Below, piece after piece: positions 57,123 to 63,145 of a stretch of 64,000 nt of DNA (position 1 is its first letter; each line of letters starts with the position of its first letter). The notes beneath the pieces are model-generated. The model searched no databases. It worked only from the letters and a program-made list of their open reading frames with translations, and was not told the origin of the DNA. The DNA is taken from assembly GCA_001443025.1 (NCBI GenBank), contig LEKP01000003.1, positions 86,652 through 150,651 of the forward strand. The letters are read 5' to 3'. Both the position numbers and the translations under genes were made by a program. The DNA comes from Parcubacteria bacterium GBS-2 (GTDB lineage: Bacteria; Patescibacteriota; Minisyncoccia; Minisyncoccales; GBS-2).

Positions 57123-59571
57123 ATTTTGGCCAACAACATTTTTTATACTTTTTCCCAGACCCACAAGGGCATGGCTCGTTCCTTCCTATTTTTTTCTTAA
57201 AATTCTTGCTTTCAAAAGAATTATCTCTTTTTTCTAATTTTAAACTAATTACTGCCTTAACAAAAGTAGAATTTAAGGTTTCAAAGAAATTTTTGAACAT
57301 TAAGTTCCCTTCCTTTTTATACTCAACGAGAGGTTCCTTTTGTCCATAAGCCCTCAGTGAAATAGAATCGCGCAGATATTCCATATTCTCTAAATGGTTT
57401 ATCCAAAGACTATCTAAAATCCTCAAGTAAAGGTATTTTGAAATTTCTAAAATTCTCTCTTTCCCAATTTCCTCTTCCTTTTTTTCAAAATCTTCTTTTT
57501 TAACGCCTTCCTTTTCAAGTATTTCAATAATCTTCATCCTCCAGCGAGAAGGATCCAATTCGAGAATCTCCTTTCTTTGTTTATAAACTCTCTCTCGGTG
57601 TAAATTCAACACGCTGTCATATTCTAAAAGATGTTTTCTTAAATCAAAATTAAAACCTTCAACTCGTGCCTGAGCCTCGTCGATTGCTTTCGAAACAATT
57701 TTTGATTCAATTGGATGATCTTCTGGAATGTTCAATGTTTCCATCAAAGCCTTTATTTTTTCTCCTCCAAAAATTCTGATTAATTCGTCCTCTAAAGAAA
57801 TAAAAAATTGCGAAGATCCTGGATCCCCTTGCCTCCCTGCTCTCCCTCTCAATTGATTGTCAATTCTTCTCGCTTCATGCCTTTCTGTGCCGATAACGTG
57901 CAGTCCTCCAAGCTTTTTAATTTTTTCATATTCTTCTTTATTTTGCGGGTTTCCTCCCAAAATTATATCCACCCCTCTTCCTGCCATGTTTGTCGCTACA
58001 GTCACTGCTCCGAGTTTTCCAGCTTGAGCTATAATTTGTCCTTCTTTTTCATGATGTTTTGCATTCAAGACTTGATGGGGAATTCCTTCTTTTTTCAAGA
58101 GCTTAGATAAATATTCATTTTTTTCTATTGATCTTGTTCCAATTAAAATCGGTTGTCCTAAAGCATGCCTTCTTTTAACTTCTTCAACTATTGCTTTAAA
58201 TTTTGCTTTCTCTGTTTTGAAAATTTTATCTGGTAAATCAACCCTAATCATTGGTTTGTTTGTAGGAATGATCACAGTTTCTAATCCATAAACTTCTAAA
58301 AATTCTTCAGCAGAGGTTGCCGCAGTTCCTGTCATTCCAGCCAATTTTTTGTATTTTCTGAAATAATTTTGAAAAGTGATTGAAGCTAGAGTAATCGTTT
58401 CTCCTTTGACTCTAACTTCAGGATGCCCTCTAATATGCTCTTTTGCTTCCACTGCCTGATGTAATCCTGCAGACCATCTTCTCCCAGGAAGCAATCTTCC
58501 TGTGAATTCATCGACGATAATTATTTCTCCATTCTTGATTACATAATCTCTATCTAAGGCAAAAAACTCTTTTGCTCTGATGGCATTTTCCAATTTATGA
58601 ATCGTCCTAAAATCTCCTTCTGCCCAAGGATCCCTTTTTAAGATTGAAATAACTTTTTTCTCGCCTTCTTCTTTCCAATTGAAAAATTTTTCTTTTTCAT
58701 TCACTGTGTAATCTTTATCTCTTTCTAGTCTTTCGGCAATTTGGGCAAAAAAATAGTATTCCTCCTCTGCTTCCCTCGCAGGAGAAGAAATTATCAAAGG
58801 AGTTCTTGCCTCATCTATCAAAATTGAATCCACTTCATCCACAATAGCATAATAGTGCCCTCTTTGAACGATGCTTTCTAAAGAATAAGCCATATTGTCT
58901 CTTAAATAATCAAACCCAAATTCATTATTTGTCCCATAAGTAATATCAGCCAAATACGCTTCCTTTCTTGTGCAAGGTCTTAAAAAATCTTCAACAACAT
59001 AAAAAGACCCAAGTTCATCTCTAAGTTTCTCTTTTTCTTCAGGGGGCTTTTTATAATCGGGATCGTACAAAAAAGATTGATCATGATTTATACAACCAAC
59101 TGAAATCCCTAAAATATGATAGATTTGTCCCATCCAAACCGTGTCTCTTCTGGCTAAATAATCATTAACCGTGACCAAATGACATCCTTTTCCTACAAGC
59201 GCATTCAAATAAAGAGGCATTGTCGCAGTTAAAGTTTTTCCTTCACCAGTTTTCATTTCAACAATTTTCCCTTCATGTAAAGCAATAGCTCCCATTATTT
59301 GAACATCAAAATGGCGCTGTCCCAAAGTCCTTTTTGCAGCCTCTCTGACCAAAGCAAAGGCTTCTGGCAAAATATCATCTAAAGTTTCTCCTTTTTTTAA
59401 TCTTTCTTTAAACTCAAAGGTTTTTTCTTTTAGTTTTGCATCAGGAATTTTTTCAAAATCTTTTTCTAAAGAGTTTATTTTTTCAACCAAAGGTTGAATT
59501 TTTTTTAAATATCTTGCATTAGGATCACCAAAAATTTTATTTAACCTAAACATACTTTTTATTTTAATCAA
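57115..59571 (-). CDS. secA: Preprotein translocase ATPase SecA
   Basis: 818 aa. MKTGEGKTL, DEVDSILIDEARTPLIIS, TNMAGRGVDI. C-terminal SEC-C Zn motif CPCGSGKKYKKCC. Confidence 0.95.
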   Translation of the reverse strand: MIKIKSMFRLNKIFGDPNARYLKKIQPLVEKINSLEKDFEKIPDAKLKEKTFEFKERLKKGETLDDILPEAFALVREAAKRTLGQRHFDVQIMGAIALHEGKIVEMKTGEGKTLTATMPLYLNALVGKGCHLVTVNDYLARRDTVWMGQIYHILGISVGCINHDQSFLYDPDYKKPPEEKEKLRDELGSFYVVEDFLRPCTRKEAYLADITYGTNNEFGFDYLRDNMAYSLESIVQRGHYYAIVDEVDSILIDEARTPLIISSPAREAEEEYYFFAQIAERLERDKDYTVNEKEKFFNWKEEGEKKVISILKRDPWAEGDFRTIHKLENAIRAKEFFALDRDYVIKNGEIIIVDEFTGRLLPGRRWSAGLHQAVEAKEHIRGHPEVRVKGETITLASITFQNYFRKYKKLAGMTGTAATSAEEFLEVYGLETVIIPTNKPMIRVDLPDKIFKTEKAKFKAIVEEVKRRHALGQPILIGTRSIEKNEYLSKLLKKEGIPHQVLNAKHHEKEGQIIAQAGKLGAVTVATNMAGRGVDIILGGNPQNKEEYEKIKKLGGLHVIGTERHEARRIDNQLRGRAGRQGDPGSSQFFISLEDELIRIFGGEKIKALMETLNIPEDHPIESKIVSKAIDEAQARVEGFNFDLRKHLLEYDSVLNLHRERVYKQRKEILELDPSRWRMKIIEILEKEGVKKEDFEKKEEEIGKERILEISKYLYLRILDSLWINHLENMEYLRDSISLRAYGQKEPLVEYKKEGNLMFKNFFETLNSTFVKAVISLKLEKRDNSFESKNFKKKIGRNEPCPCGSGKKYKKCCWPKYG

Positions 59572-59592
59572 TTTTTTAAAAAGCGGAAATTT

Positions 59593-59620
59593 AAAAATAA
59601 AAAAGAAGGGGGGGCCCTCC
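59593..59620 (-). terminator. Rho-independent terminator of the small high-GC gene
   Basis: Minus strand GGAGGG-CCCC-CCCTTC followed by TTTTTTATTTTT. Confidence 0.55.
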
Positions 59621-59636
59621 GATTTTAAAAAGAGCT

Positions 59637-59979
59637 TTATGAAATTAATTTTTGTATGGAAACACCCGAGGCGTCAAGAAGATTGATTTCAGCTTTTTCT
59701 CGGTTTAATTCTATTTTTTTTCCTCCCGAGAGATCGACTAAATTGAATTTTCCCACCAGTTCCAGATGAAGATCGTGGGCCTCGCTTGCATCAACTATAA
59801 TGGCCATGCCTTCAACTCTTACCCATCCAGATGTTTTGGAAAGGTCGACTCGGTTAAAAGCTCCTTTGATGACGAATGGTTTTTCTTTCTCTCCAAGTGT
59901 TCTCTCGCTGTAATCCCTGTTCTCCAATCTCCTTAGCAGTTTACATAGTTCTTCTATTTTTTTATCTTTTCTTTTTTCA
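59637..59979 (-). CDS. Hypothetical small beta-rich protein. The 96-codon ORF (59637-59927) probably starts at GTG 59979 and is joined by a -1 shift on an A7 run
   Basis: The ORF-track TTG start has its SD only 1 nt upstream. Upstream, GGAGGTGAGGAGG precedes GTG AAA AAA GAA AAG ATA AAA AAA TAG. A -1 shift at A AAA AAA reads ...IEELCKLLRRLENRDYSER... in the main frame. Confidence 0.5.
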
Positions 59980-60012
59980 CCCTCCTCACCTCCTTTCTAA
60001 AGATCATAGAAT

Positions 60013-60041
60013 ATTATAATCCAAATTTTAAATTTTGTCAA
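60013..60041 (-). promoter_or_regulatory. Consensus sigma70 promoter
   Basis: Minus strand TTGACA (60041-60036), exactly 17 nt, TATAAT (60018-60013). Confidence 0.7.
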
Positions 60042-60078: not shown

Positions 60079-60954
60079 TTAAAATTGCTTCTCAAAAACA
60101 ATTCCCAAAATTTTAGAGATTAATTTTGCTGCCAAATAATTTGGATAAAATAATCCAGGAATTGGGGACAATTCAACTACATCAAAACCTAAAATCTCTT
60201 TTTCTTTTGCTACTTCTTTTACAATTTCTAAAATATTTTCAAAAAATAATCCTTCTGGCTCTGGGGTTCCAACGGCTGGCATGATTGAAGGATCTAGTAC
60301 ATCTAGATCGATAGTTAAATAAACTTTCTCTGCTAAGAAATCTAAAATTTCTTTTTTTTCATAATTTCTTTTGTAAAAAACTTTAACTTTTTTTGTTTTA
60401 TTTATGAAATTGAATTCCTCTTTTGAGATTGCTCTCACGCCAACCTGGCAAATTTTAATTTTCAAATCACCAACAATTCTTCTAGCAAAAGTTGCATGGT
60501 GGTATTTTGTTCCCTCAAATTCATCTCTTAAATCAGAGTGAGCATCAAACTGTAAAACTGAAAATTCATTTTTAAAAAATGTTTTGAAAGCCAAAACCGC
60601 TCCCAATGTTAAGGTGTGTTCTCCCCCTAAAATTACTGGGAATTTTTTATTTTTTATGATTTTCTCTACCGCTTTTTTAATCTGAAAAACCGCCTCTTTT
60701 GGAGAGTTTTTGGTTAAAGATAAAAAAGGTAAAGTAAAAATTCCAATCTTTGAAATGTCTTTTTTTAAATCTTCATCGAAAAGCTCAACATTTCTCGAAG
60801 CTTCAATGATTGCCTTAGGTCCCTCTTTTGTCCCTCCTAAATTGAAAACCGTTGCCTCAAAAGGAACTGGTAAAATCCAGACTTTAGATTTTTTCGGATT
60901 TTGATTCTCCAAACTTAAAAAATTGAAGGGTGATTCTTCTTTAAAAAGGTTCAT
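60079..60954 (-). CDS. speB: Agmatinase / ureohydrolase family enzyme
   Basis: GGEHTLT, DAHSDLR, DLDVLDP Mn-binding motifs. Confidence 0.85.
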   Translation of the reverse strand: MNLFKEESPFNFLSLENQNPKKSKVWILPVPFEATVFNLGGTKEGPKAIIEASRNVELFDEDLKKDISKIGIFTLPFLSLTKNSPKEAVFQIKKAVEKIIKNKKFPVILGGEHTLTLGAVLAFKTFFKNEFSVLQFDAHSDLRDEFEGTKYHHATFARRIVGDLKIKICQVGVRAISKEEFNFINKTKKVKVFYKRNYEKKEILDFLAEKVYLTIDLDVLDPSIMPAVGTPEPEGLFFENILEIVKEVAKEKEILGFDVVELSPIPGLFYPNYLAAKLISKILGIVFEKQF

Positions 60955-61969
60955 CGAAAATCTCTTCTAAAAATTTTGGAGGTTTCCTTTTAAAATCTCC
61001 AACTCTATCTGCTAAGGCATGGCAAATTAAAGGAAAGGCAATGGTAGCATCACAATAGCATTGAACATTATTTCCTTGTCTTGCTTCTTTTCCCCAAGAA
61101 ATTGCTTCTTCAAAAGTAGCTCCTGATAACCCGCCCCACTGGGGAGAATCGGTTGTAATTTGAATCGCAAAAGAATGAGGATAATCTAGAGTCTCTCCTT
61201 TTATTACCCCTTTTTCTGCCGCAATCATTTGAATGAAATCTTTTGGAACTCCTCCACCAATGAAAACCGCTCCAGTTTTTTTGCTCTTTTCTCCAATCAG
61301 AGTTATTTCATAAAAATCTTTGGTCTGGTCTAAAATAATATGTTTTTTATGATTTCTTTTTGCTAAAACTAAAGCAATTCCATATTCTGAATCAACCAAG
61401 GCTGGGCAAAAAACATGAACTTTCTTTTTGTAGGCTGTAGCCAAAAGACAATCGATTTTTCTTTCTGCCAAAAATTTTCCAAAAAGCCAACAAAACTCTC
61501 GTGTAGAATAGGGATAATTTTCTTTTAAAGAAAGAGCAAATTTTTTAATTAAATCAGTCATCTTTCGATATTTTTGACCATCGGTAAAGACATCATAGTA
61601 TCTAAAAATTTTTAATTTCCAAAGTTCTTCGTCATTGACTAGCCAGTGTCCCTGATAGTATCCGTGTAAAGTATCTTGAATGTCTTCTGAAATATTAGCT
61701 CCGGTAGGAACTAAAACATCAATGTATCTTTTTTCCATCAACCATTTAACCAATTTCCATTGACCGGTAGTTGACATTGATCCTGCAAATCCAAAAAATA
61801 TTGTCGTCTCTTTGTCTCTAATCATTTTTTCAAAAACATCAACAGCCTCTCCCAATTTTCTTCCTTGAAATCCAGTTTTTGACATTTCTTCCAAGAGCTG
61901 AAGAATTGATTTCCCTTTTTTAACTTCAATCGTTTTTAATTTTTTTGAAAGATATTTTCTTTTTTTCAT
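60941..61969 (-). CDS. Deoxyhypusine synthase-like protein (start at ATG 61969, ATGA overlap with the pdaD stop)
   Basis: [11 protein letters not shown] motif. EEAISWGKE matches the DHS catalytic-Lys region (EAVSWGK). Confidence 0.8.
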
Positions 61970-62508
61970 GGAATAAAAACTGCAGCCGCCACAACACAAG
62001 TCCAAAGACCGTCTTTATGACCTTCTGCAGTTTGAGTGATATTTGTAGTATAAACAATTTTTTCTGACATTTTAAAAACCTTTTCTCGTTCATCCCAAGC
62101 AGAATCTGGATCAAAGACAATTCCCAAAGTAGATGCTAACATTGAGGCCGCTAAATCTTCAGCATATTCTCCTGCTTTTTCTTGAGTCTGACCGAAAGAG
62201 TGATGCTCTGCAATGTAACCATACTGATTTTTATCGGCGGGAATTGCACAGCCAATCGAAGCTGCAATTAATCTATTCGGTTCATTAGTTGCGTTCTTTG
62301 AAATTACCGTAAAAACGATTTCTCCAGGTTTTAAATATTTCAACCCTTCTTCCTTAGAGATTTTTTTACAGCCTGGGGGCAAAATTGAAGAAACCGAAAC
62401 TAAATTGAATTTTGAAATTCCAGCTTTTTCTAGAGCCAACTCAAAAGACTGTAAATAATTTTTGTGAACCCCAACTCCTTTTGTCAAAAAGAAATAACGT
62501 GGAACCAT
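61966..62508 (-). CDS. pdaD: Pyruvoyl-dependent arginine decarboxylase
   Basis: [26 protein letters not shown]...[11 protein letters not shown] (self-cleavage Ser-Ser site). Confidence 0.85.
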
Positions 62509-62560
62509 TGGATTTATTTTATTATCTTAATTATCTTAAAACAAAATCACTAGTCAAGAT

Positions 62561-63145
62561 TCACAAAAGCTTGGCCTTCTTTATCGCTTTAGCCAATCTT
62601 ACAATATTTCTTCCTAAAATTTCTAATTCTTCTCCTTTCCAAGTTCCCTTCCCTCCCTCATCAAAAAAGGGAGATGCAAAAGGTGGAATGACACATCCCA
62701 TTTCATTAAAAACAGAAATTAAATAATGAGAAACTTCTTCTCCACCAGATTCTTGAGCAGGAGAAACAGCAGCAAATATTTTCTCTTCCAACAAGAACCC
62801 GTTATTTTCGAGAGAAGTCAATCTATCAATAAAGTTTTTAACCAAACCAGAAACTGAAAACCAATAGGAAGGACAACCTAAAACTATTCCTTGAGCTTTA
62901 AGTAAAAGAGGGTAAATTTTTTCCATGTCGTCTTTTTGTTTACAGGGAAAAGTACAACTTTTGGGAGAAGTAGAATAACAACCAAGGCAGGGTAAAATTT
63001 TAAAATCTATCAAATGAATCAATTTTACCTCTGCCCCTTCTTTCTCCGCTCCTTTCATTACTTTTTTTAAATATTTGACAGTCCTTCCAATTTTTCTTGG
63101 AGATCCGTTAATAAAAAGAATAAAAGGTTTCATGATCTTGAACAA
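62561..63145 (-). CDS. Flavodoxin-like FMN reductase / iron-sulfur flavoprotein family
   Basis: ILFINGSPRKIGRT; Cys cluster CLGCYSTSPKSCTFPC. Confidence 0.7.
   Translation of the reverse strand: MFKIMKPFILFINGSPRKIGRTVKYLKKVMKGAEKEGAEVKLIHLIDFKILPCLGCYSTSPKSCTFPCKQKDDMEKIYPLLLKAQGIVLGCPSYWFSVSGLVKNFIDRLTSLENNGFLLEEKIFAAVSPAQESGGEEVSHYLISVFNEMGCVIPPFASPFFDEGGKGTWKGEELEILGRNIVRLAKAIKKAKLL

Follow-up and report, generated by a model that had tools for sequence, protein, structure and literature searches.

Programmed -1 frameshifting of the dnaX and IS-element type relies on an A AAA AAG heptamer accompanied by an upstream SD-like element and a downstream hairpin, and an SD located 17 nt away falls outside the spacing that stimulates -1 shifts at dnaX-type sites. 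In AT-rich, reduced genomes such as that of Mycoplasma, switches between seven and eight adenines in a coding tract are a known phase-variation device, as exemplified by the P78 lipoprotein of Mycoplasma fermentans, which carries an A7/A8 coding tract. In Buchnera and Blochmannia, frameshifts at poly(A) tracts are tolerated via transcriptional slippage, with tracts that are usually 9-10 A or longer and conserved across strains; a run of seven adenines is short for efficient transcriptional slippage.

The locus examined here, located in a 64,000-nucleotide stretch of DNA that was analysed as a whole and is referred to as the window, resembles each of these systems in part. It shares with the dnaX and IS-element sites an A-rich heptamer in the zero frame, a -1 product and a stop codon just after, but a downstream structure and a correctly spaced stimulator are both lacking, the site is missing in sister strains and orthologs, and the zero-frame product is an 8-residue peptide without plausible function. 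Like P78, it possesses a tract of seven or eight adenines near the 5' end that decides the frame, both lengths being found in near-identical genomes; unlike in P78, its tract is tied to a flanking SNP, and its protein is not known to be a surface antigen. As in Buchnera and Blochmannia, a gene in a small AT-rich genome is broken at a poly(A) run and partial rescue by polymerase infidelity is possible, whereas here the run is A7, the frameshift is specific to the strain, and the 64 kb show no second gene that is evidently broken. With a probability of about two in three, a conserved small gene has here truly and recently lost one A of an A8 tract in a single strain lineage of a hot-spring Patescibacteria-like bacterium, an ordinary frameshift mutation that cuts off a conserved N-terminal helix, rather than programmed recoding. 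What the data support directly in this reading is that two alleles exist and are linked to a SNP, that the change has a known polarity, that the orthologs keep an intact ORF, that the protein is under purifying selection and that RNA stimulators are lacking.

The window is densely packed at 33% GC, with 65 of the 67 ORFs of at least 60 aa on the minus strand, often with 4-nt overlaps, and only five intergenic gaps exceed 150 nt. Three tRNAs (Gln-CTG, Thr-CGT and Gly-CCC) are located at 43.2-47.2 kb. Upstream of the small gene lies a conserved polyamine cluster (window 60079-63145 and beyond; positions 1-3890 of the ortholog-bearing contigs L002-L006), comprising a BpsA_C-like branched-polyamine synthase, a flavodoxin-like protein, a pyruvoyl arginine decarboxylase (PvlArgDC), a deoxyhypusine-synthase-like gene and an agmatinase (speB). 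This cluster fits a thermophile that makes long or branched polyamines and is notable for a small Patescibacteria-like genome. The small gene itself forms a promoter-to-terminator unit with the following features:

60041-60013, minus strand: sigma-70 promoter with TTGACA at 60041-60036, a 17-nt spacer and TATAAT at 60018-60013 (12 of 12 positions matching)
59993-59981, minus strand: two Shine-Dalgarno motifs, GGAGGTGAGGAGG, with GGAGG at 59993-59989 and at 59985-59981
59980-59954, minus strand: truncated frame GTG AAA AAA GAA AAG ATA AAA AAA TAG, translated as MKKEKIKK, with the stop TAG at 59956-59954
59963-59957, minus strand: A7 homopolymer, the frameshift site, which is A8 in the sister haplotype
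59957-59637, minus strand: gene body in the -1 frame, IEELCKLLRRLENRDY...QKLIS followed by TAA, predicted to encode the remainder of the N-terminal helix and a beta-solenoid-like core
59927-59925, minus strand: TTG chosen by the gene caller as the start of a 96-aa product, an internal Leu codon
59721-59714, minus strand: internal A8 run (codons of GGKKIE), identical in 7 of 7 compared contigs and serving as a control for homopolymer calling within the gene
59620-59595, minus strand: intrinsic terminator-like hairpin, GGAGGGCCCCCCCTTC, and T-run, with a poly-C loop whose length differs between assemblies

The perfect TTGACA-17-TATAAT match is the single one in the whole 64-kb window, compared with 0.00 expected (none in 100 shuffles), and it bears out the promoter that the initial annotation, made from the letters of the stretch, had placed between speB and secA; the terminator said to delimit the unit corresponds to the hairpin and T-run listed above. 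The first GGAGG lies 8 nt ahead of GTG 59980, and the second abuts it. In the frame of this GTG, the A-run reads A AAA AAA and is followed by TAG, and a -1 shift leads into the long frame, which is open on the minus strand from 59996 to the TAA at 59639-59637. The GTG mini-ORF MKKEKIKK had been described correctly in its sequence and in its A AAA AAA TAG end, but its coordinates, given as 59979-59953, were off by one. In the same frame as GTG 59980, an ATG occurs at window 60007-60005 (minus strand), 5-6 nt past the -10 box. The orthologs lack this ATG; a 123-aa product (P0006) was called by JGI from it in contig L014, and it could coincide with the transcription start site and serve as a leaderless start.

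Look-ups of exact products and contig retrieval brought together seven contigs, which match the window at 99.7-100% identity over 1.8-3.4 kb; tract lengths and SNP states were taken from the assembled contigs. Together with the window, they represent two haplotypes:

A7 with A at 59128: the window; L010 and L011 (Logan SRR7539479 and SRR7539411); L012 and L013 (ENA ERZ27245891 and ERZ27289263)
A8 with G at 59128: L001 (JGI 3300005278), L014 (3300000106) and L015 (3300000085)

A7 is carried by five sequences and A8 by three, and tract length is linked to the SNP at 59128 in 8 of 8, which is a small sample. The SNP is a synonymous G-to-A change within secA, 836 nt from the tract. In the A8 contigs, whose identity to the window is 99.7-99.9%, GTG 59980 opens one continuous ORF of 114 aa (P0001, starting VKKEKIKKIEELCK), and the joined protein of about 114 aa and the KIKKIEEL junction that had been predicted for the window match P0001, called from a near-identical A8 contig, exactly. 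A simple continuous ORF with A8 had been set beforehand as the observation that would speak against a shift, and this is what L001, L014 and L015 contain. In an outgroup species, the position corresponding to 59128 is G and the ORF is unbroken, which makes the window haplotype the derived one at each of the two linked sites; most simply, a single lineage gained the secA G-to-A change and a 1-nt deletion in the A8 tract. Apart from the tract, the A7 allele is undamaged and so gives no hint of decay; slippage could still keep the locus functional. When every homopolymer of at least 6 bases in the 64-kb window was tested with a change of +1 or -1, no obvious second split gene was found; the test flagged just ordinary junctions of adjacent overlapping genes and yielded little information beyond that. 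According to the record names, the JGI samples are Great Boiling Spring material of 77 °C, 3300005278 being a Hedlund-lab data set.

Orthologs were found in two other species, namely P0002 (69% identity; L002-L009) and P0009 (48%; L017-L019). The gene directly follows DS-speB in all three species; secA comes next in the window and in L002, and in L017 the N-terminus of secA could be read by eye after the gene. A perfect TTGACA-17-TATAAT promoter occupies the same position in L002 and L017, and a hairpin with T-run stands at the equivalent place (GGGGGCTCTGCCCCC in L002 and AGAGGGGCACTTCCCCTCT in L017). Each ortholog has a single SD (AAAGGAGGTGA in L002 and AAAGGGGGTGA in L017) and a plain ORF starting with ATG, without the mini-ORF and without the A-run, throughout L002-L009 and L017-L019. 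Scans for the locus among genome contigs and among metagenome contigs each yielded nothing beyond the ortholog locus already known. Between the window species and its sister species, whose MAG record is labelled uncultured Candidatus Saccharibacteria bacterium, SecA is 77% identical. Horizontal acquisition, which had been offered as one explanation of the locus, disagrees with the same speB-X-secA site, promoter and GC3 excess in three species, and the gene is regarded as a true protein gene, small and stand-alone, that was inherited vertically. The double SD (window 59981-59993, compared with L002 3978-3990) resembles a tandem duplication of GGAGGTGA, and the species-specific A-run sits where the ortholog has ATG AAA codons; together, these two observations suggest that the duplication gave rise to a GTG further upstream, which took over as the start.

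The position of the true N-terminus can be traced through the same comparison. The TTG at 59927 had been judged no credible start, as it lies 1 nt after its SD, and this judgement is sustained: it lies 1 nt after AGGAG, and its counterpart in L002 is an internal CTG (Leu) that belongs to a conserved LRRLE motif, so that the TTG does not represent a conserved start. All five codons of this motif differ between the two genes only synonymously (CTA/CTG, AGG/AGA, AGA/AGG, TTG/CTG and GAG/GAA), dN/dS against the ortholog is about 0.09 over the 11 codons that precede the TTG, and 17 of 18 homologs have 15-25 residues on the N-terminal side of the conserved D-x-S position. In the N-terminus of the 114-aa ORF, residues K8, E10, E11 and L16-E20 are invariant with respect to P0002. 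The proposal of a true N-terminus upstream, reached by restoring the frame at the A-run, is thereby upheld, the A8 ORF aligning with the N-termini of the family. AlphaFold2, run with a 19-sequence alignment, gave a mean pLDDT of 94.1 and a pTM of 0.82 with agreement among the five models, and it predicts residues 2-18 as a helix packed on the core (pLDDT about 87); the 96-aa form would, on this model, lack the N-terminal helix.

The unit encodes a protein and not an RNA. In a 103-codon comparison with the 69%-identical ortholog, the whole-gene dN/dS is 0.16, indicating purifying selection, and protein searches find homologs of the long frame. The claim of an autonomous small gene accordingly stands, with its own promoter, SD and terminator and a dN/dS typed as protein-coding. 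A structured non-coding RNA was considered as a candidate, given a GC-rich promoter-to-terminator unit within an otherwise AT-rich genome, and it was rejected: the best Rfam match to the unit has an E-value of 0.96, with all matches under the gathering score and no match there in a gathering-score scan of the whole window either, ARAGORN found no tmRNA at the unit, folding of the 417-nt transcript against shuffles gave a z-score of +0.95 and no excess structure, and the substitutions are of protein type.

Under the reading preferred here, an A8 tract at codons 7-9 would have lost one A to become A7, so that translation from GTG 59980 would end after 8 codons. The remaining gene would now lie in the -1 frame and be expressed only through unprogrammed events, for which three routes may be envisaged: spontaneous -1 slippage of the ribosome on A AAA AAA ahead of TAG, slippage of RNA polymerase on the A-run, and re-initiation at the internal TTG, the last giving a product without the helix. 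Full-length protein would come from the A7 allele by spontaneous slippage only; its yield is inferred. Since A AAA AAA followed by a stop is intrinsically shift-prone, a low level of unprogrammed rescue may exist. In the same reading, and with the same degree of confidence, the A7 allele would have arisen recently and would act as a knock-out or knock-down, perhaps a reversible one, rather than being a recoding signal shaped by evolution.

Two alternatives concern which of the two tract lengths is to be believed. According to one, A8 is the only true length in the organism, and A7 entered this assembly as an under-called homopolymer. A 1-nt change in homopolymer length is a classic type of error, A8 contigs do exist, and the ENA co-assemblies and the NCBI MAG may reuse Logan reads, so that the independent observations of A7 may be as few as two. 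Homopolymer calls also wobble at this locus, as shown by the secA A-run of L001 and by the poly-C of the terminator loop (59608-59614), which is C7 in the window and L011, C8 in L010, C6 in L012 and TC6 in L013; the latter variation, which alters the size of the terminator loop, is either real heterogeneity or miscalling of a G/C homopolymer. Yet at least four further assemblies, drawn from two or more read sets, show A7 as well. Besides the window, seven contigs examined for the 96-aa product have it, and these sequences come from NCBI, two Logan runs and two ENA assemblies; records of this product, by which A7 can be recognised, exist for NCBI, Logan and ENA and also for two JGI contigs (P0004, by product). 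Because their poly-C lengths differ, the A7 assemblies are separate and not copies of one another, and while unlike at the poly-C, they all agree on A7. Moreover, A7 co-segregates with the derived SNP, and the A8 run inside the gene (59721-59714) is called correctly everywhere. We therefore infer that the A7 allele is real in cells rather than a consensus artefact, and the homopolymer sequencing error that had been listed among the explanations is improbable. The opposite alternative, in which A7 is true in all strains, the A8 of the JGI contigs is the artefact, and full-length protein is made by species-specific recoding through -1 frameshifting or transcriptional slippage, is more improbable still. 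It draws on a canonical slippery heptamer of the form X XXY YYZ (A AAA AAA, 59963-59957) in the zero frame set by GTG 59980, with the stop codon directly after it, on an intact downstream frame, and on a very strong promoter and SD, owing to which even a few per cent of shifting could yield useful protein. It can also appeal to the other indel errors in the assemblies with A8: L001 has a secA A7-to-A6 change at L001 2644 (window 57485) plus NN, L015 has an AG insertion at 293-294 (window 59820) that splits the small gene into products of 62 and 56 aa, and L014 has a 485-aa secA call, and proteins called from these older JGI contigs need care because of such frame-breaking indels. On the other hand, among runs of at least 7 bases elsewhere in the stretches compared with the JGI contigs, 20 of 21 comparisons agree with the window and one is discordant (the secA change in L001), whereas at the focal run 3 of 3 JGI contigs depart from the window in one and the same direction, being +1 at this site only. 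The shift site is not conserved, either: L001, L014 and L015 have A8, L002-L009 and L017-L019 have no A-run, and 18 family members are single ORFs, leaving no conservation to justify the term programmed. No downstream stem-loop or pseudoknot is indicated, as the 87 nt downstream fold at -6.4 kcal/mol (z-score +1.37), with 183 of 200 shuffles folding at least as well, and no SD-like stimulator lies at a spacing of 10-14 nt, the closest GGAGG ending 17 nt upstream of the heptamer. Programmed transcriptional slippage typically involves a conserved out-of-frame run of 9 or more A or T, and the run here is A7, short for efficient slippage, in a state that is not conserved. Programmed -1 frameshifting or transcriptional slippage, as initially suggested, thus gives way before near-identical contigs that carry A8 and orthologs that read straight through without the mini-ORF and the A-run, the comparison of orthologs for a conserved shift site having been set as a test beforehand.

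A third alternative accepts both tract lengths and reads them as reversible phase variation, in which slipped-strand mispairing in the A7/A8 tract turns the protein OFF and ON and the two haplotypes are snapshots of a high-frequency switch. The homopolymer lies inside the first 10 codons behind a very strong promoter, and its length sets the frame, A8 being in frame and A7 out of frame; in-frame and out-of-frame lengths both occur among contigs that are about 99.9% identical, and the A7 allele is free of secondary damage. The tract is found in this species only and seems to have formed at the place of the ancestral ATG, and the precedent from Mycoplasma shows that such switches are known from AT-rich, reduced genomes. 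Nevertheless, tract length goes strictly with a SNP at a distance of 836 nt, a pattern that resembles a single mutation fixed in one lineage rather than frequent switching; each sample is represented by one tract length, and the window contains 141 runs of at least 7 bases, so that an A8 tract in a genome of 33% GC needs no special explanation. Such a switch is considered unlikely. Only slightly less doubtful is the wider proposition that the A7/A8 tract works as a functional on/off or slippage-tuned switch, whether by phase variation or by appreciable -1 slippage with a reduced dose of full-length protein in the A7 lineage. The real deletion in one strain lineage is consequently retained as the main reading. 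The explanations offered by the initial annotation fared unequally, in that the joined protein was recovered, the programmed shift and the horizontal transfer were not, and a genuine strain-level indel was absent from the list.

The composition of the gene is unusual for its surroundings. Its ORF has a GC3 of 0.355, the top value in the window, compared with 0.248 +/- 0.027 over 61 ORFs, and an overall GC of 0.40 compared with 0.33, in keeping with the earlier remark that its codons end in G or C more often than those of neighbouring genes; for so short a gene, this GC3 excess is moderate, at about 2.5 binomial SD. In the orthologs the excess is larger than in the window, with GC3 values of 0.429 and 0.444 against 0.13-0.25 in their neighbours, and because both show it, the excess is no mark of foreign origin. 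All three loci (L002 4001-4315, L017 2071-2394 and window 59637-59980) combine a perfect promoter with a GC3 of 0.36-0.44 against 0.13-0.25 in neighbours. Codon selection in a very highly expressed gene would be the most economical reading of the GC3, of a promoter kept in three species and of the strong SD, and these sequence features suggest that the gene may be among the most highly expressed of these genomes.

At the protein level, the nearest described counterparts are pentapeptide-repeat proteins and other short right-handed beta-solenoids (PF00805; the CARP domain of CAP), which the window protein resembles in its hhDhS(G/x)A repeats of about 20 residues and in its best, non-significant matches. 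It contains four repeats of about 19-20 residues each with the motif hhDhS(G)A. Pentapeptide-repeat proteins have a period of 5, in contrast to the 19-20 of the window family, which also occurs as a module inside giant NACHT + LRR_6 proteins. Pfam, NCBIfam and PADLOC assigned no family to the window protein; across 19 members, Pfam gave only noise-level matches, with PF00805 in 1 of 19 at an E-value of 0.086, the best hit of a PDB profile search was 2j8k at an E-value of 0.086, and Foldseek returned E-values of at least 0.2 and TM-scores of at most 0.49. The pentapeptide repeat family (PF00805), having no significant match by Pfam, PDB profile or Foldseek, was set aside, and because no match reaches significance, the protein is placed in no named family. 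On the basis of the predicted model, it is described as small and beta-solenoid-like, with a capping helix at its N-terminus.

An exhaustive HMMER search of 1.84 billion cluster representatives recovered 27 relatives with E-values up to 0.001. They are mostly stand-alone proteins of 100-127 aa, 18 stand-alone members being called as single ORFs. A module of about 105 aa, with the helix included, is also present in 3-9 copies in giant proteins of 1189-3162 aa (P0013, with 3162 aa, P0018, P0021, P0023 and others). Four of these giant proteins were scanned, three of which have an N-terminal NACHT NTPase and LRR_6, while the fourth (P0023) has LRR domains only. The stand-alone proteins may therefore be single-module relatives of a sensor or repeat domain of STAND proteins.

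For recoding biology, this locus provides a useful negative, in which a textbook-looking heptamer with a stop behind a strong SD turned out, after comparison with sister strains and orthologs, to be a strain-level indel. For annotation, the recorded 96-aa product starting at TTG is a mis-call, the real gene being one of 114 aa that starts at GTG 59980 and is frameshifted in the window lineage. That disruption is tolerated in a natural lineage indicates that the protein can be dispensed with, at least in some conditions. If the tract were a functional switch after all, it would be the first contingency-type locus described in thermophilic Patescibacteria (CPR). More interesting than the shift is the family itself, an unannotated family of about 105 aa composed of a helix and a beta-solenoid, conserved beside secA in hot-spring Patescibacteria-like genomes, in which all three loci read display a perfect consensus promoter, a strong SD, a terminator-like hairpin and a marked GC3 excess, the signs of very high expression.
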